Shown piece after piece: positions 1,884-31,287 of a stretch of DNA of 64,000 bases. Origin of the DNA: Phoronis australis (Eukaryota > Animalia > Phoronida); the NCBI GenBank assembly GCA_002633005.1, contig NMRA01000295.1, positions 314,240 to 378,239 on the forward strand, given 5' to 3'. A program made the translations under genes and the position numbers. Numbering within the stretch: position 1 is the first letter of the stretch; each line of letters begins with the position of its first letter. The notes below the pieces were generated by a model, which was not told where the DNA came from, made no database searches, and worked only from the letters and a program-made list of their open reading frames with translations.

Positions 1884-2041
1884 AGAGAGCCACTGCGAGA
1901 TCGAGCGGCGCCGGCGCAACAAAATGGCCACCTACCTGAGCGAGCTGTGCGAGATGGTTCCGGCCTGCAGCACTCTGGCCCGTAAGCCAGACAAGCTGAC
2001 CATCCTCCGCATGGCAGTCTCGCACATGAAAACACTGCGAG
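1884..2041 (+). CDS. ARNT: ARNT bHLH exon, copy A (158 nt): [52 protein letters not shown]
   Basis: Acceptor ttgtttgcag at 1883, donor G|gtaatg at 2042; 1+156+1 nt; close match to the ARNT basic-HLH. Confidence 0.95.
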
Positions 2042-5000
2042 GTAATGTGTTACACACAGCGCCCTCTAACCACCTGCTACAACTATTGCCGTTGTATTGT
2101 CTGCCTGTTGTTGGCATCTTCTACTGTTTGTACCCACCCTCTTCTGTTGCTGCAATTGATGTTGATGGCTTGGTTTCGTTCAATTTTGTTATGGCATGAT
2201 GCTGAGAAAGTTTTTAAATTTGTCATTTTTCACTTAATAGGATTTTTCTGTTAATATAATGGGCTCATTTTGAAAAAGATTCAAATCATCCAGCTCTTCA
2301 GGTTTGATTTTGAACTTTGTAAAATTTCTGCCTGGAAAATAGCTGTCGCAGTTTCTCTTTTGAAATCCTGTCAACTTTTGCCCAAGTTGGTTTCCTCATG
2401 CATCGTGACAAAGCAATGCGGAACAGGGCGACATCACCGTGGCAACGACTCCCCAGTGCCATCTCTTCCTCATCCGGGCATGCTTCCAAAGAACATTCAC
2501 TTCACCGACTCATCACGTGTTTCTTGCAGAGACAATCACCGACAGATTGAAAGCCGCCGTCGCCTTAAGATGGCCGCCTATGTTAACGAGCTGTGCGACT
2601 TGGTGCCAGCTTGTAGCACGCTGGCTCGTAAGCCAGATAAACTGACAATTCTGCGGTTGGCGGCGGCGCACATGAAGACGCTACGAGGTAACGTCACGTG
2701 TTCGCATTGAACCTTCCCCACTGAGTCGATAGTTGGTGTGCTTTTCTTGCATTTCCTTTTTCACACTGCACACGTGAAGCCACCACAAGACCGCAACACT
2801 ACCACCAACACCGGGATGGCTGCGTCAAGCTTTCTCAGTTGAGCTGATTGTTGTACTTATCATTCCATTTTCCAACTCACACCTCTTGGCCCATTTCTCT
2901 CACTGTGCTCTGAATTCTCATTCTTCTGTTCTCACACTGACAAGAGCCTCCTGAACTTTACACCTAAGGTATGCTGTTATGTTTGTTTCATTGTGTTCTG
3001 TTACCTTATCTCAGGCTGGACTGGCAGCCTTCTCCGTGAGTCACGCACCATTGTGTGATGGTCATGCAATTCTGTTCCATTTAGGCTCTTTATGTTTGTT
3101 TGGCCAGAATTGAGTGTACTACTTTATTGTAATTTTTACACTCTCTGTTAGAGGTTTCCTGAATTACAATCGCGTATGTTTACTCTAGCTCACACCTGGT
3201 GCGACTTTCACATTCACTTTGGCAAGCGTAATGCGTTCCACAATTTTGTTTTGATGCTGTGCTTGTTTTCAATTGTCATGGAAAGTGGTTCTCTGCCACT
3301 GAAGTAGAAGTCGAATTGTTCACCACACAAGATGTCTGTTTAATGTTGGAGTGTGTTAAATGTATGTTTTTATGTTTTTTTTTTTCGTCAAAACTGACAG
3401 GCAGTTTGTATTCGTTTCAGAATCTCTGTGTTTAGTGAGATAATTTATCCTTTAGAAATAATTGGTTGCAACTTATTGATTACAACATACTTTGCCAGGA
3501 AAGTCATTAGCATGACGCGCAAGCTTCCCATAAGCAGCTAAAATTAATATTTTGATTTCTTGTTAAGTTTAAAAATTTATTTAGTAGTTACTTTCTGTGT
3601 TTTTCTGAGTTAGTTTTCGTGATTTTTTTGTTGCAGGTACTGGGAACACAGGGGCTGATGGTTCATACAAGCCGTCTTTTTTAACAGATCAAGAACTGAA
3701 GCATTTGATATTGGAGGTGTGTACCGAAACTGGAAGTTGTCATGGTGTGATCAATCGAACTGATTTAGTCTCCACGCATTTTTAATTAATTTAGGTCAAA
3801 TCTTGATTGGAAATGAGGTTTTGATGAATTCTATGCTGGTGTGTGCTAACTGTCCATAACATGTTTTATGTTGGTATTTATTAATGGTACTTTGTGATAG
3901 GCAGCACAGCACCCCAGATTGATGAAACTAAACAGTAACATGCCCTTGACATCATATAAAGTATGAATTTGTAAAGGTCGTGTACCATTTTATGGATCGA
4001 TGAAAATTTTTGCGTGTGTTTGTTAGGGCTGTTTTAAAGGTTTTATCTGGCTGATATAGAGGGCCCTGAACATGTCCAAATTTGGCTAACTTTAAAAAAT
4101 CATATCTCAGAAGTGGCTGATCAGATTCATGAAAACCCTAATGTGCTGTAACAGAGGATATTGCACAAATGTGTAATGGGAAGTGCCAAAGTAATTTCGA
4201 GTGGAGTATGAAGTTTATACCCAGCGCCCTGGTGTCGAGACTTTTCCTACTTTATGCCAACTGTTGACTGTAAAGGGACGTGTTTCATTTTGCATGAATG
4301 GACAGTGTCCCATAGTTCATTGCACTCTCTCCGTATGAAGGTCAATCAGACGTCTGCTCACAAATAATTTCTTCAAAAACGTGGAGTTAGAGTTTGTTTT
4401 ATTTTAGCAACCAAAGCCTTATGTTTTTTTTGTTTGTTTGTTTGTTTGTTTGTTTGTTTGATATACGGATTCATCGATTGCTTTGATGAGTTTCATATTT
4501 TGCTCATTTCCTATTCTCAGGCCGCAGATGGTTTCCTGTTTGTCACTCAGTGTGACACTGGACAGGTTATCTATGTGTCCGACTCGGTAACACCTGTACT
4601 CAATCAACCTCAGGTAAGTACATCTGTGGCAGCACATTTAGAACCCTCCATTTACTGGTTACTGTCAGTAGTTAGAGAAATGCATTTTTAGGAAATTAGT
4701 TGCCGAAGTAGACGTTCTTTTGCTTCTTTACCTGTCCTTTTGTATTCAGGCATTTCCATCTTTGTTAAATCGCTGCTCAAGCTAGTTGATTGTTATGGCT
4801 GAAGATCAATATGAATTGGTAATTGAACACGGACCAAAAATTACATTTACTTTATTCTATTTGGCATGAGTATAAGTGGTTCTCTCTCTCTCTTAGCAAT
4901 AGTGACATACCTCTGTGTGTTTTTTTTTTGGCTTCAAATTTTCCATATTTGGTGGCAATAAATATTGTGGCAGTCTTCTTTTTCCAAAAATGAAATTAAC

Positions 5001-8000
5001 GACTGTCTGTGCAGGTTTTTTTGTTGCATTGTTAGTTACAAGGCATGTCGCTTCTTTGTCAGTTGCAGCTCTGAAATGCTTTGCGGTCGTACTTTTCAAA
5101 ACTAAGTCAATCATGCTAGTTATATTTTTCTACCTCCACTGCAGAAAAAAGTTAAATTCACGACATGGCTGTTTGACGTCTTTGTTTAACCCCTGTAGGG
5201 CGAGTGGTACAGGAAGTCCCTTTACGAACTGGTGCACCCTGAGGATGTTGACAAACTTCGGGAGCAGCTGTCAACGTCGGAGCCACAGAACGCCGGCAGG
5301 ATACTTGACCTCAAAAGTACGTTGCGCTCCAATTCCATGAACGTGCATATGCACTTGGTTAAGATTCTGCGCCATAGTGCAAAGTTTAACCCTTTTACAT
5401 GAATTTAAAAATTCTTGTTAAACAGTCAAGACAAGTGCTTAATCGCAACACTTGTTAGCTTTTACATGTTGGCCTTGGAGGTGGTAACTAGTCTTCATAT
5501 TGGCTTAGAATTCTGCAGAGGGTTGTAAAACATGGGTGTCGTTCACAAGCAATTGGCTTTTTGAAATTGACATGCTAAGTTAGTGAAAGCAGCTCTTTGT
5601 GAAACCTGCTCTTAGCCATAAACTGTCCCAGTTGGACTGTGTGACTAAACATAGTTTAACAAAGGGTTTCTGGTCTTGGGTGTGAAGAAAATCATTTTAT
5701 TACCCCTTTTGGATAGTTGAATAGCCAGGCCTACATGAATTTTCTTTGTGTGCAGTGTGCATGGCCTTGAGTCACTTTCGTAATTAAATGATCACTTGTT
5801 ATTGACTCGCCTTGTCTTCGTTGCCGTTGTCCCATAAAATATTGCAGAGACTAAATATTTTTGAATCCATTCAGAGAAATCACTGTTTTCTTTTATCCAC
5901 AAACGTTTCTTTCAGCTGGAACAGTGAAGAAGGAAGGCCATCAATGTATGTGCTCAGTCTGTGGAATAAGTATTCTTTTTGTTGATTTCAATTTGTGAAC
6001 ATTCGTGACTTGTCACATAAATATTGCCTCAACAGGTATCGCCATATATGAAGTTCTGACAGTTGTAATCATTGTCCTAACATATATATTTGGCTTTCGG
6101 TTTCATCGACATCAGTATCATTTATGAGCATATTTGGTGTATTCAAAGGCAATAGCCAAGGGCAACACGTTTGTGTGTACGCCAGGCACGCGTGTATTGT
6201 GAAGCAACTTGCACCAGTGTCGTAGATGCACATTTTAATTTGGACACTGTCGCTGTCTTTTATTGCAGCGTCCATGAGGTTGTGCATGGGCTCGCGACGG
6301 GGCTTCATTATTCGCATGAGACTAGGCGGTGTGCAGATTGATCCGATGGCCGCCAATCACACTGTGCGCATTCGCCAGCGTAGCACGCTGGGCCCCTCCC
6401 CCGACGGACACCAGTACGCTGTCGTGCACGTAACGGGATACATAAAGAACTGGCCGCCCTCTGGTGAGAACATTTGATTGTTGCGTTGTATTTCTGTAAT
6501 GTTAACGGGGCACATAATACAGTTTCTGTGGTGTGGTAAAGTAATCACACGGTAATCAGTTTCTGGCCTGGGACCAGCTTCTTCTTGTTTTAAATAAGTC
6601 AGATTTTTAATTTGTCTTCTATAAATATTGTATTTCAGACCAGAGTGAGGCAATAAGATTGTTAAAATTCAAATTAGGTTGATTTTTTGTAACGTTATGC
6701 GTCTATACATCTCGGGAATTTTTGAGTCAGATACAAAATTTCCCAAATGCCATGTGTCCTTGCATTCTGTGACGATAATTGCATAAAAGTTTAATAAGTA
6801 CTTCTGTTACCTCAGGACTTCCGTAGTTTCATTGACGAACAATCCGAAACCATTCAAATATAGTAAAAAATTGAAAGATCCAGCAACTTCAACTAAAATT
6901 ACCAAGTGAACTCTTAAACTCTTAAAGCAGTTCGTGACTATTGGAATTGGAAACATGTTAAAGTTATGTATAATCTTTTCGATAAGTCTGCATTTTGCCA
7001 AATATCTACACATTAAGTTAAACTGTAAAAATTAACTCAGAGTCTGTAAAATGATATATTTCCTGAATGTAGAAATCCTGTAGACTTTGATTTATTGTGA
7101 TGTGTTGTTAATTGGGTCACGTGACATCTTCTCTATGTTCATAAAATTTAGGATGAAAGAGAAGTGCAACGTTATCAATAATGGCCAAGTTTCATTTGAT
7201 TTAGATTTCATGAGGAAATCTTGAAAAAGCTGATGGTTTTATGAAATAATTTGTTATATGCAACTTTTGATTTTTTCATAAAAAATGATAAAAGAAACAT
7301 TTTTGATTGCCCCTCATGCATAAGTGGAACATTTTAAAAGCTTCTACACGGTTAGCAGAAGGTCCTGCGTTCGAGTCCCGGTCGGGGGGCAGAAATCTTT
7401 TTCGGACTTATATTCATTAGGTCACATGATGTGACCAAAAAGGTGGCGGGTTGAACGGGATAAACTATTTCCAGCATTTTAAAAGCAATTCCTAGTGTCT
7501 TGGAGAACAGTGTGAAATACATAACGTGGAAGTTTCAACCAAGCTTGGAATTTTCCTATTTTAAGAAGATTTCCTCTTTTTTGGTGTCGATTTCGTCTTA
7601 TTGGATTTCCAGTTTCCTCTTTCTTCGTCGTATCATCAATTTCACTTTATTCATGCAGAAATGTTAATTTCACTTACGTTTTACAACACAAATTGTATTT
7701 CTGTCACACAAGCCTATTGGTGGAACCATACCTCACTAAGAAAATTTTCCTAGTTTTTGTCGAGCCCTGTTTGAAATGAATCTGATGAGCCATTCTTGAG
7801 ATATATTCTTCCAAAGTTAGCAAAGTTTGGACATTCTTCCAGGCTCCTACTTATAACCTTAAATCTGGTAATCATTGTTGTAGGTGTACAGTTAGATCGT
7901 AGTGACACAGACGATGGCCACGGTTCCAACAACTGCTGCCTTGTGGCCATTGGTCGATTGCAGGTGACCTCATCACCCAACTGCAGTGACCTCAACAATC

Positions 8001-11000
8001 CTAATGCTACGGAATTCATCTCGCGCCATAGTGTTGATGGGAAATTCACATTTTTAGACCAGAGGTACTTTGTGCCTTGTGTAGAACTGCGGAATCATTC
8101 TTCTGATGTTGCTGCCCAGTGTCCTACTACTGAACTGGTGATTGCAAACCGTTAAGGATTTTTCCCCAAAAATTCAATAGTTTTCCGTGCCACTCCTAAC
8201 AATTCTTTAATACGTGTCAAGTTTGCTACTTGTTAGGAAATACTTTAAATGATTTCAGTCACAAAGCAAATTGGCCATTTTCAGGGGTTTTTGGCGGTTT
8301 TAGCTGATTTGAACTTCAATTTGTCTGGATCTGCATGGAATTTTACACACTAATTTTATAGATCTGTTAGCCAGGGAGCTACTACAATTTTTTATTCTCC
8401 AAGCAAATGAGATATTGGATGCGAAATATGAAGACTTGAATTCTTTAAAGAAGTCTTTTTTATTTGAGGGTAAATTCTTTTGCAAATTCGTTGTAAGTTC
8501 TTTGATATTAGAATCAAATCTAGCCCAAGTGTTGTTAATGCGATATACCCTGTCTATTAGAGTTTTAATGAGACCTACTTTATAAACAAAGGATGTGAAG
8601 CTATGAAAACAACGAATTTGTAAAAGAATGGCTATCCCCTAGAATTAGTCAATAGAGTACTGAAAGCAAGACTCCAACGTAACCCTGATGATGTTCATCC
8701 TGTAGACAAAACTAACTACAAGTACTTTAAAATACCCTATGTTGGGTTTTACGCCAAAATTGCTCAACGAAAACTCAACAAATTGGTGAATGATTACTGT
8801 TTGAACTTAAGAGTTGTATTAACATTCAAGTCTCTAAAACTGTCGAGTTTATTTAACCGTAAGGACAAAATTTCTATGGGTCTACAGTCCAAGGTAGTAT
8901 ACAAATTTATCTGTGCTGGATGTGGCTCCAGTTATATAGGCGAAACTGTTCGCCATTTGAAAACCAGGACCAAGGAACATCTAAATTCTGACAGTAATTC
9001 ACATGTAAATATTCACCTGCAGAGCTCCAATCATTGTTATCAGCAGTGCTCTTTCAATGACTTTGCAATAATAGACCAGGCAGTAACAACAAAGGAGCTT
9101 AAAATTCGTGAGGCTTTACATATCAGTTGGTGCAAGCCCAATCTCAATAGGCAACTGACACACCACAGGTTGTCATTGTTGGTCTAGTTCATTGTCACTC
9201 CCTGTAACTGACTGTATCTGTGCTTCATTACTTGTTGCTGGGCCTAGCTAGGTGGCCACTGTATCTGAGGATGGTGTTTAATAAATGACACCGAAACATG
9301 TCAAGTTTTAAAACCGTTGTTGTTTTCTTGAATATATGCTGTTACTTGCTATCATGGAACTCCACCTTAACCATTTGGAGCTGTTCAGTCTGGACACGGC
9401 GGCCATTACACCTATACCTCTCACACAGGCATTGACATTATATAAAGTTACTTGAAGTTAAACTGTGTGAATGTGTGAGGGTAGTCTGTTGACATTCAAC
9501 CATTTTATTGCAGTTTTAAAGCTGATCGAAAGGTGACTCAAAACCAGAAAGTCAACAATATTGCTTGCTCATACTTTTCTCCTCTGCTTAGCCTGATGAA
9601 AAAATTTTAGGTCTCTTGGAATTTTATGAACAGCTTTGTGATGAGCGCAACTCTAGACCAAAAATTGTCCTTATTTGTCTAATCCCAACTTACAAGGCTT
9701 TCTCATTTTACAGGGTCAGTGCAGTGCTGGGCTATCAGCCTCAGGAGCTACTGGGAAAGTCATCCTACGAGTTTTTCCACCCCGAAGACCAACCACTATT
9801 GCGAGATACATTCGAAAGAGGTGAATGCTGTCAGTTTAATATTTCCTTCTGAGGCTAGTTTGTCTTGACGTGTGTCATTCAGTTCATCTTTGTGTCAGGG
9901 TTACAAAACTGCAAATCTTTCAACAGGTATTTGATTTAAGAGCGACATCATTTTGAAATCGAAATTCCTCACTCTCATGCAGTTTGCCAGTCTTAGTAAC
10001 TGACTTTTCAATAATTTTTACTGTTTTCTTGTTAGTTTTCTACTGTAGCCAAAAGTATTCACACAAAATGACCCAGAATCTCCCGTCACGACGGCTGGGT
10101 AGAATCTGAATTCATCATTGGAACAGTGTCCCATGGTGACTGGCGTTGAAGGATAATTACCAGGGACAGTAAGAAGTTGGATTCTGTAATTCGAATTTTA
10201 TCGCCATAATAGTTATTATCAGTAAACTTTGTTGTGAACAGAATTAGACGTCATGATGGGGAAATTTGTTCGATTACTTTTTTCTGATTACTTTTGCCTT
10301 GTGCTGTATTGCTTAGTTTTACTTTTGCCTTGTGCTGTATTGCTTAGTTTTACTTTTTTGTGGTGTCCATATTGTGTCACTGTATTCCGTGATTTTTTTC
10401 TTATTTAAAATTTTCATTTGTTTAACAGTGAAGTTGATAATGTATGAACATTTCCTTGTCGTGCAATAATACTTTCCATCTGCCTAGTGTTGAATTTGAA
10501 AGGTCTCAAAATGTACCATATACATAAACTTTCCCTTCTCATTTGTGTGTCGTCTCATTTCCCACCTTTCTTGAATAGTCATCTGGTTTCCACGGTTTTC
10601 AATATCCATTAAACGTTTCTTCTCTCTGGTAACGTTTGGTTTCTAATCTCCCTAATTTTCCTTCCTTTCATCTGCCTAGTGTTAAAGTTGAAAGGTCAGG
10701 TCGTGTCAACTATGTCATTTGGTGTCTAATCTCCCTAATCTTCCTATTTTACATCTACCCAGTGTTAAAGTTGAAAGGTCAGGTCGTGTCCACAATGTAC
10801 CGTATCCGTGCCAAGACCAATGAGTGGGTGTGGCTACGGACCAACTGCTTCAGCTTTCAGAACCCTTACACTGATGAGGTGGAGTATATTGTCTGCACTA
10901 ACTGTCTGAACAAGTGAGTAGACGGGCTGGGGATGTGGGCAGGGGGGGTGAACCAGGGGGTGTGGACCGTGTTTGGCACCTCATAGCATTGTAGGGACAC

Positions 11001-31000: not shown

Positions 31001-31287
31001 ATCCTTGTGTCCAATTCAGAACATCGACTCGTATTAAAAAAAATCTAAGGGCTCGGTCCTAAAACATGAAAGAAAATTGATTTTCAAAGATGACTACATT
31101 TGCCTTAATCAATTGTGTCCTTTTTCCAGGCGACAGTACCAACGCTGTCTCTCAGGCCTCCCATGAAGCTCAGTCAGGACCATCTAGTGGCCACACAACT
31201 CAGCAGGAGTTTTCGGACATGCTACACAACATGATAGACCCCCCGGGCTCCGACTTTGCGGATATCTTCGGAACGTATCCGGAGTAG
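1884..31287 (+). CDS. ARNT: ARNT / HIF-1beta / tango-family bHLH-PAS transcription factor, 5'-partial multi-exon gene (overall span; exons listed separately)
   Basis: Spliced translation gives hallmark ARNT motifs: [12 protein letters not shown]...[56 protein letters not shown]...[11 protein letters not shown]...ILDLKTGTVKKEG...[17 protein letters not shown]...[15 protein letters not shown]...EFISRH...GKFTFLDQR...[11 protein letters not shown]...[16 protein letters not shown]. All introns are GT-AG and exon phases chain consistently to the stop codon. Confidence 0.97.
2530..2687 (+). CDS. ARNT: ARNT bHLH exon, copy B (158 nt), candidate mutually exclusive alternative: [52 protein letters not shown]
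   Basis: Acceptor tttcttgcag at 2529, donor G|gtaacg at 2688; same length and phases as copy A; 38/52 aa identical; no indels or stops. Confidence 0.9.
3015..3035 (+). CDS. Candidate 21-nt in-frame microexon between bHLH and PAS-A (net +7 aa, WTGSLLR)
   Basis: ttaccttatctcag|GCTGGACTGGCAGCCTTCTCC|gtgagt: pyrimidine tract plus AG, consensus gtgagt donor, multiple of 3, open in phase 1. No transcript evidence available. Confidence 0.4.
3637..3716 (+). CDS. ARNT: ARNT exon: (G)[26 protein letters not shown]
   Basis: ttgcag| ... GAG|gtgtgt; highly conserved ARNT linker and A'-alpha motif. Confidence 0.95.
4521..4613 (+). CDS. ARNT: ARNT exon, PAS-A: [31 protein letters not shown]
   Basis: ttctcag| ... 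CAG|gtaagt; conserved PAS-A motif. Confidence 0.96.
5199..5316 (+). CDS. ARNT: ARNT exon, PAS-A: [39 protein letters not shown]
   Basis: ctgtag| ... A|gtacgt; [12 protein letters not shown] and RILDLK motifs. Confidence 0.95.
5916..5945 (+). CDS. ARNT: ARNT 30-nt exon: [10 protein letters not shown]
   Basis: tttcag| ... T|gtatgt; completes the conserved ILDLKTGTVKKEG motif. Confidence 0.92.
6269..6463 (+). CDS. ARNT: ARNT exon, PAS-A C-terminal part: [18 protein letters not shown]...[16 protein letters not shown]
   Basis: attgcag| ... G|gtgaga; conserved ARNT motifs. Confidence 0.96.
7350..7470 (+). mobile_element. Fragment of a tRNA-derived SINE
   Basis: aaggtcctgcgttcgagtcccggtcggggg resembles a T-arm/B-box; the 5' half is missing. 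Confidence 0.4.
7884..8064 (+). CDS. ARNT: ARNT exon: GVQLDRSD...[44 protein letters not shown]
   Basis: ttgtag| ... AG|gtactt; end of PAS-A and start of PAS-B. Confidence 0.96.
8470..9310 (+). mobile_element. 5'-truncated Penelope-like retroelement (end of RT, linker and GIY-YIG endonuclease) in an ARNT intron
   Basis: The + frame reads NGYP...IPYVG...[29 protein letters not shown]...[16 protein letters not shown] (to 9187). The minus strand at 8470-8585 encodes [20 protein letters not shown]..., the upstream RT C-terminal motif. Confidence 0.88.
9258..9306 (+). ncRNA. Minimal hammerhead ribozyme motif in the 3' region of the Penelope-like element
   Basis: CUGAGGA-U-[GGUGU...ACACC stem II]-GAAAC-AU-GUC; palindromic ACAUGU stem III; stem I weak. 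Confidence 0.7.
9714..9820 (+). CDS. ARNT: ARNT exon, PAS-B: [35 protein letters not shown]
   Basis: tttacag| ... G|gtgaat; conserved PAS-B motif. Confidence 0.96.
10476..10791 (+). repeat. Three copies of the PAC-exon acceptor plus exon start (AGs ending at 10487, 10679 and 10762)
   Basis: catct(g/a)cc(t/c)agtgtt(a/g)aa(g/t)ttgaaaggtc repeated; the last two copies form an ~83-bp tandem duplication. Confidence 0.85.
10763..10913 (+). CDS. ARNT: ARNT exon, PAC: [50 protein letters not shown]
   Basis: ctacccag| ... AA|gtgagt; conserved PAC motif. Confidence 0.96.
11191..11374. mobile_element. Short MITE
   Basis: TIRs cagtagttttcaa / ttgaaaactactg; TA on the left flank (Tc1/mariner-like). Confidence 0.55.
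11402..11954 (+). repeat. 69-bp direct repeats (11402-11470, 11886-11954) flanking the ARNT exon at 11618-11805
   Basis: tgagattattaatgaggcgtt...gtctcattgatttttgtcgaatgggaa twice, with 2 mismatches. Confidence 0.9.
11618..11805 (+). CDS. ARNT: ARNT C-terminal low-complexity exon ([15 protein letters not shown]...NPIRPAH)
   Basis: attgcag| ... G|gtatgt; phase fits both neighbours; open, S/Q/P-rich. Confidence 0.8.
12154..12242 (+). CDS. ARNT: ARNT C-terminal exon ([30 protein letters not shown])
   Basis: cctttacag| ... CAG|gtaata; phase-compatible, GC-richer than its flanks. Confidence 0.75.
13570..14300. repeat. Degenerate internally repeated element (about 4 subunits)
   Basis: ggcaccccct(g/a)tt..cc.ttttagtt-like motif recurs near 13593, 13869, 13994 and 14146. 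Confidence 0.5.
14503..14551 (+). CDS. ARNT: ARNT C-terminal exon ([16 protein letters not shown])
   Basis: tgtttcag| ... G|gtaagt; bridges phase 0 to phase 1 exactly as required. Confidence 0.72.
15366..15446 (+). CDS. ARNT: ARNT C-terminal exon ([27 protein letters not shown])
   Basis: atttcag| ... G|gtagtt; phase-compatible; the WxxWQ-like motif resembles ARNT C-termini. Confidence 0.78.
16770..17736. mobile_element. Non-autonomous DNA transposon nested in an older repeat
   Basis: Ends cagtggtggatcta / aaatccgcctatg, flanked by duplicated cattaag. The flanks rejoin to match the uninterrupted copy at ~58430-58820. Confidence 0.7.
18670..20680 (+). mobile_element. Helentron-associated non-autonomous element (HINE/DINE-1-like) with an internal ~670-bp duplication
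   Basis: 5' cttggcggaa...ttccgacaag inverted pair; 3' tttcgccaagtgtcgctcctcg; shares body and (CAT)n-rich segment with the 21970-23310 element. Confidence 0.6.
21234..21732. mobile_element. MITE (PIF/Harbinger-like) with repeated cagtatgaa.gg(t/c)taacttc-like motifs
   Basis: Ends aagggcctttcattct / agtatgaaaatgccttt, with TTA/TAA-like flanks. Confidence 0.45.
21970..23310 (+). mobile_element. Helentron-associated non-autonomous element (spans an N gap)
   Basis: 5' cttggcgaaa-taaa-tttcgccaag; 3' subterminal tttcgccaag (23278-23287) followed by hairpin cgctcc-tc-ggagcg (23291-23304). Confidence 0.65.
24868..25137. mobile_element. MITE with ~50-bp imperfect TIRs
   Basis: tctcacggacttcagcttggcaagtg versus cactagccaagctgaagaccgtgaga, extending outward. 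Confidence 0.65.
25045..26690. repeat. Single-N-joined tandem duplication (25045-25742 / 25744-26690), probable uncollapsed haplotypes
   Basis: Near-identical copies separated by one N at 25743; the second copy carries a SINE insertion. Confidence 0.85.
26217..26455 (-). mobile_element. Apparently full-length tRNA-derived SINE (~240 bp) with a 10-bp TSD
   Basis: Minus-strand head with A-box tggcctggttg and B-box ggttcaagtcc; TSD aagattatat at 26207-26216 and 26456-26465; empty site at 25508-25517. Confidence 0.85.
29056..29681. mobile_element. MITE with long imperfect TIRs
   Basis: ctggttccctgcgtgtccgctaggggtagagaac versus gttctctaccctctagcagacacgcagggaaccag. Confidence 0.7.
31130..31287 (+). 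CDS. ARNT: ARNT terminal coding exon (GDSTNAVSQ...[28 protein letters not shown])
   Basis: tttttccag| in phase 1; the EFSDML...F..F..E* tail resembles the ARNT C-terminal activation tail; stop TAG at 31285-31287. Confidence 0.85.

Follow-up and report, generated by a model that had tools for sequence, protein, structure and literature searches.

We found two tandem copies of the bHLH exon, A and B, in the ARNT gene of Phoronis australis, within a window of 64,000 nt (the whole stretch of DNA analysed here) in which most of one animal ARNT gene lies on the + strand. Exon A is of the ordinary ARNT type and is spliced in this animal, and exon B is of an alternative type, which would here be a minor form restricted to certain tissues or stages. 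We hold with good confidence that the pair probably goes back to a single duplication before the annelid-brachiopod split, and that its two members are probably used in a mutually exclusive manner. An earlier note, made from the letters of this DNA alone, had proposed such a switch; the logic of the reading frame and the either-or isoforms or tandem copies annotated in three phyla argue for it, but only A was seen spliced in P. australis itself.

The assignment of the gene to ARNT, also proposed in that note, is borne out by its bHLH, which fits ARNT structures best (E 4e-19, compared with 2e-15 for BMAL1), and by PAS-A and PAS-B downstream, the succession of domains that places it in class II of the bHLH-PAS proteins. 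The eight downstream exons, when joined, encode 317 residues with no stop, and this part is 77-79% identical to the best-matching lophotrochozoan ARNTs (Lingula, Haliotis and an annelid-like source); in a quick tree it groups with sequences of annelids at moderate support (SH-aLRT 91). PAS exons belonging to B separately from those of A were looked for and none were found. The exon upstream of A falls outside the window, and its end was placed solely from the overhangs of reads. All features are collected in Table 1.

Table 1. Exons and introns of the P. australis ARNT gene, in positions of the window; X1, X2 and X3 are RNA raw-read runs
Feature	Position	Strand	Evidence and remarks
bHLH exon A, ordinary ARNT type	1884..2041	+	158 nt; spliced form in 3 of 3 raw-read runs
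Intron separating A from B	2042..2529	+	488 nt, GT-AG; reads of X1 and X2 run through it unspliced
bHLH exon B, alternative type	2530..2687	+	158 nt, intact splice sites; no spliced junction listed
Intron following B	2688..3636	+	949 nt; reads of X1 and X2 run through it unspliced, few of X3
First exon shared downstream of A and B (linker into PAS-A)	3637..3716	+	joints to 4521 in 10/3/22 reads of X1/X2/X3
PAS-A exon	4521..4613	+	joints in reads; frame check
PAS-A exon	5199..5316	+	joints in reads
30-nt exon	5916..5945	+	joints in reads
PAS-A exon	6269..6463	+	joint from 5945; read overhang into the following exon
Exon leading into PAS-B	7884..8064	+	read overhang fits its start; tblastn
PAS-B exon, predicted	9714..9820	+	tblastn, open frame
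PAS-B exon, predicted	10763..10913	+	tblastn, open frame
Probable last coding exon	31150..31284	+	weak match to ARNT C-termini, tblastn E 0.002 and E 0.049

Several local repeats accompany this gene. The PAS-B exon at 10763 is preceded by two partial copies of its acceptor end (10470-10505 and 10635-10798, with an AG at 10486-10487 and at 10678-10679), and an 83-nt tandem unit of 88% identity is found near the same exon. The copy at 10680 codes for the first 11 residues of the exon and then reaches a stop; these copies look like broken local duplications and could act as decoy acceptors. The intronic region 8560-9190 resembles, by eye, the endonuclease end of a retroelement, and dispersed intronic repeats at 4072-4135 and 5463-5679 attract reads of both strands and from other loci. 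Ahead of the exon at 6269, six X1 and two X2 reads continue into the intron (6176-6268) and have five mismatches to the window; another allele with partial retention may be their source, or an alternative acceptor.

A and B are complete bHLH exons with intact and nearly identical splice sites, both acceptors reading TTGCAG/AGA and both donors GAG/GTAA. We reproduced what had been reported for this pair earlier, namely the spacing of 488 nt, the 14 of 52 residues that are unlike (six of these within the first 12), the common stretch of codons 25-42 with silent changes in 12 of its 18 codons and no residue change, and the frameshift to a TGA at 2643-2645 when A is spliced onto B. Omitting both exons likewise leads to an early stop (TGA at 3656-3658), and unspliced run-on from A stops at 2197-2199. 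Either exon by itself preserves the frame, so that a productive mRNA can hold only one copy, as had been claimed. Within the window, A and B align at 75% identity over 144 nt (E 1.8e-23), with 42 of all 158 bases unlike, and no further match to either exon was found elsewhere in the 64,000 nt. Nei-Gojobori counts gave a pS of 0.72 and a pN of 0.13 (dS about 2.3, close to saturation, and dN 0.14), and the introns flanking A share no alignable sequence with those flanking B, both in agreement with the earlier view of an old duplication under purifying selection. A and B are thus adjoining homologous exons of equal length and equal phase with intact sites, as expected of a tandem-duplicated exon, and they represent a tandem duplication of the complete ARNT bHLH exon, real and old.

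The use of the two exons in P. australis was followed in three stranded raw-read runs of the same species (X1-X3), about 19% of each being read, and in a contig set (X4) that had no coverage of A or B. Splicing of A was directly seen: the junction 2041 to 3637 occurs in 6, 3 and 16 reads of X1, X2 and X3, with nine further short overhangs in X3, and overhangs into the exon upstream of A are present in six reads of X1 and 16 of X3. The junctions named in the earlier note were therefore recovered for A but not for B, as no junction into or out of B reached the listing threshold of three reads in any of the three runs, compared with 25 A junctions. A predominance of transcripts joining A to B, which that note had named as evidence against a switch, was not found, no such joint being listed in X1-X3 at three or more reads.

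Reads over B do exist, at depths of 2.8-4.8 (X1), 3.8-4.0 (X2) and 0-1.4 (X3), compared with 9.7, 5.1 and 30 over A. Because the introns flanking B have the same depth as B itself (1.6-7.6 in X1 and 0-6.2 in X2), these reads are best read as unspliced RNA. Depth is zero in the repeat-free bins of the next three downstream introns, and in X1 it was found in all 30 bins except the last, so that 2042-3636 is covered throughout. Sense unspliced reads around the two exons lie at 1637-1790 (X1 only) and at 2042-3636 (X1 and X2), and hardly occur in X3. Splicing of the cassette thus lags in two of the three samples, with small counts. The upper bound on the share of B among spliced molecules is 25%, 40% and 7-11% in X1, X2 and X3, a loose bound given the small counts.

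Homologues were collected by protein searches and from 30 clusters, with at most 15 members listed for each, which yielded 343 proteins and 67 distinct full bHLH copies. In the brachiopod Lingula, the RefSeq isoforms X1/X3 and X2/X4, of equal length and from one contig, differ at 12 residues, every one inside the exon; in the nemertean Lineus, isoforms X1/X4 and X2/X5 differ at 19 residues, again every one inside the exon (both sets are automatic models). In the Lingula genome, about 500 nt lie between the A type and a B type downstream of it, an arrangement repeated on a second scaffold, according to supplementary data (PMC5381572). A gene model of the annelid Paralvinella likewise holds an A type followed by a B type, and the conserved tandem copies that the earlier note had suggested looking for in relatives therefore exist. 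Of the two Capitella models, which lie on different scaffolds, one is a full A type and the other a partial B type; Owenia and Tubulanus have one A-type model each. Use of each exon in related species is documented by the annotated isoform pairs of Lingula and Lineus, automatic as these models are, and by continuous B-type ORFs, intron-free over 634-722 aa on contigs of 2.8-4.0 kb (P0012, P0016, P0154), which are likely spliced mRNAs. Dimorphilus (four bHLH proteins: P0009, P0040, P0057 and P0058) and Intoshia (P0157) have proteins of B type or B-like, and B can thus be the annotated main form; exon A may have been lost from these compact genomes, for which nothing else is annotated.

Ten clusters include named molluscs; their 80 listed members with a bHLH all agree in type within each cluster, and no bHLH switch within a species was found among the 19 flatworm, 48 arthropod and 3 tardigrade proteins listed from clusters. 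The lack of a second type in molluscs and the other groups is provisional, because the large clusters were partly sampled (15 members each of 112, 25, 22, 41, 77 and 16) and because clustering at 90% hides isoforms. Three apparent further cases were rejected: the four bHLH variants of bees track species and not isoforms, the two identical bHLH copies 542 residues apart in Cordylochernes (P0063) reflect a doubled gene model, and P0064 has a short repeat of the exon start.

The age of the duplication was addressed with bHLH trees of 52 columns and either 42 or 21 rows, the tests on 21 rows being run with repeated searches. In the 42-row tree, a branch (bootstrap 41, SH-aLRT 95) separates the B copies, that of Lineus among them, from the rest, and a private clade of A and B of P. 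australis was not rejected (p-AU 0.245). With 21 rows, forcing all B copies into a single clade costs 0.25 log units (p-AU 0.45), and separate duplications in each of five species cost 46 and were rejected (p-KH 0.002, p-SH 0.017). The cost of a private pair is 7.8 log units for P. australis (p-AU 0.008, p-KH 0.057, hence rejected by the AU test only), 13 for Lingula (p-AU 0.043) and 3.9 for Lineus (p-AU 0.46, not rejected). One duplication per phylum had a p-AU of 1e-6 and a p-SH of 0.09, under a constraint that also forces the monophyly of phyla, which blurs this rejection. The trees would thus permit one origin, short of proof, as 52 columns make a weak tree; taken together with the order and spacing of the Lingula copies, they make a single duplication that predates the annelid-brachiopod split the best reading, and a likely one. 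The nemertean copy has a long branch and could have arisen independently.

A copy was counted as B type if ARNT positions 109 and 134 were occupied by V and L, respectively. N103 is absent from all 14 distinct B-type copies of other species and present in 49 of the 53 other copies, and positions 103, 109 and 134 represent the conserved marks of B. The same 14 copies keep the ordinary first 11 residues. B of P. australis carries six residues that are absent from all 67 distinct copies, five of them in the basic region, and six of its eight differences from Lingula B lie in the first 12 residues (Fisher p 0.001). The contrast between A and B in the basic region, to which the earlier note had drawn attention, is accordingly real (6 of 12 residues), but it is not a conserved feature of B, as none of the 67 other copies shares it. 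The ARNT residues reported to read the GTG half-site, H94, E98, R101 and R102 (in the parts of PMC9674253 and PMC8657931 that deal with this contact), are kept in both exons by alignment to ARNT chains, in line with the earlier claim. All four are missed by the six basic-region changes (chance probability 0.03); substitutions in B include R99 to S, N103 to L and S95 to R. The alternative exon of Lineus longissimus (P0172/P0168) has followed a path of its own: 19 of its 52 residues have diverged, some of them in the loop and in helix 2, and the R99 position is occupied by K. That B mimics BMAL1 is not supported, both B types scoring higher on ARNT chains (70 vs 59 bits, and 51.9 vs 48.9 for Lineus B).

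The rewritten basic region, along with the lack of a listed B junction, also bears on another reading, in which B was once a working alternative exon and is now silent or decaying in this animal, or acts as a decoy that slows splicing and cuts ARNT output via retained introns and decay. Retention in X1 and X2 that coincides with the surroundings of A and B, the six residues unique among 67 copies, the crowding of the differences from Lingula B at the exon start and the apparent lack of B in molluscs would all suit such an exon; however, a dead exon with silent sites so near to saturation would be expected to lose its open frame, its perfect splice sites, its spared contact residues and its excess of silent over residue changes in codons 25-42 (12 vs 0), and we regard this explanation as unlikely. 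The changes also cluster upstream of Met14, and in X1 and X2 the intron that precedes B has sense reads over it, as could be the case if B were expressed from an internal promoter or as an alternative first exon with a start at Met14 (2570), giving an ARNT without basic region that serves as an Id-like partner sink. This we consider very improbable, because the contact residues upstream of Met14 are kept, the B isoforms of relatives have a full N-terminus, and neither clustered molecule starts nor a joint from B to 3637 were listed. That the two copies are an assembly artefact of two haplotypes or remnants of two genes, as N gaps elsewhere in the window, the 83-nt repeat at another ARNT exon and a published survey that took Lingula copies for genes (PMC5381572, supplementary data) might suggest, is largely refuted and barely credible in view of the 42 differing bases, the unalignable flanks, the continuous X1 depth across 2042-3636, the missing PAS exons of B and the same order and spacing in Lingula.

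On the preferred reading, an old pair of exons used one at a time, mRNAs with both exons or with neither would be cleared by nonsense-mediated decay. Exclusivity could result from competition of the near-identical splice sites under a regulator, together with decay of the wrong products, and the retention in two of three samples, small in counts, suggests a regulated slow splicing step at A/B. Steric exclusion is at odds with the intron length (488 nt) and the AG-free zone of 36 nt before B, and a mismatch of U2 and U12 spliceosomes with the fact that all sites are GT-AG. In a crude scan for docking-site RNA pairing, with the upstream intron mostly outside the window, none of ten region pairs exceeded the best of eight shuffles (exon A with exon B tied). 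An ARNT protein with exon B would still read the GTG half-site through its four conserved contact residues, and its affinity would likely be lower or altered by R99 to S, N103 to L and R at the S95 position; R99 is a position that we take usually to help hold the DNA backbone. Positions 109, 115, 134, 136 and 137, which are presumably helix-packing sites, may slightly change how B packs with HIF-alpha, AhR, Sim or Trh.

ARNT is the single common partner of HIF-alpha, AhR, Sim and Trachealess, and its bHLH is, to our knowledge, nearly invariant across animals. If our reading is true, an either-or bHLH has been kept in three phyla for, by the divergence dates usually given, more than 500 million years and represents an overlooked control point over a number of pathways in stress and development, the animals concerned being frequent inhabitants of low-oxygen sediments and vents. 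More speculatively, and with considerable doubt, the cassette might be a two-state switch of ARNT DNA binding and dimerisation that dates from the annelid-brachiopod-nemertean ancestor, was lost in molluscs and has been mistaken for additional genes, with the B slot separately rewired in P. australis and Lineus, so that one splicing choice resets hypoxia, xenobiotic and midline outputs.

This probable either-or bHLH cassette of ARNT is real and ancient, and it seems undescribed so far: no title or abstract describing it was found in a literature that mostly excludes subscription journals, where a prior description is possible, and RefSeq numbers the Lingula and Lineus isoforms without comment on exon choice. 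Bao et al. 2017, in the portions that concern ARNT, list four Lingula ARNT 'genes' as an A-type/B-type pair on each of two scaffolds, report that each of five mollusc genomes has a single ARNT, and treat the linked copies as recent gene duplicates within single species (PMC5381572). Our finding corrects these gene counts for Lingula. The P. australis pair is like 'LaARNT1-4' in its two sequence types, their order and the gap of about 500 nt, as far as the supplement of that study goes (PMC5381572), and unlike them in the rewritten basic region of B.

By the fit of its bHLH to ARNT structures and its downstream PAS-A and PAS-B, the gene belongs with the ARNT/HIF-1beta/Tango family, yet its second bHLH type sets it apart from the ARNTs of the mollusc, flatworm, arthropod and tardigrade members listed. 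The closest parallel is TCF3/E2A, described, in the passage concerned, as one gene with two alternative bHLH exons, E12 with weak and E47 with strong DNA binding (PMC6317319). TCF3 is a class I E protein; ARNT, in contrast, is a bHLH-PAS hub, and for its arrangement, found in lophotrochozoans, the observed contrasts are sequence differences between the copies and intron retention that varies with the sample. Both are single genes that hold two alternative bHLH exons for binding DNA, and as they come from different gene families, the ARNT cassette probably arose independently of E12/E47.
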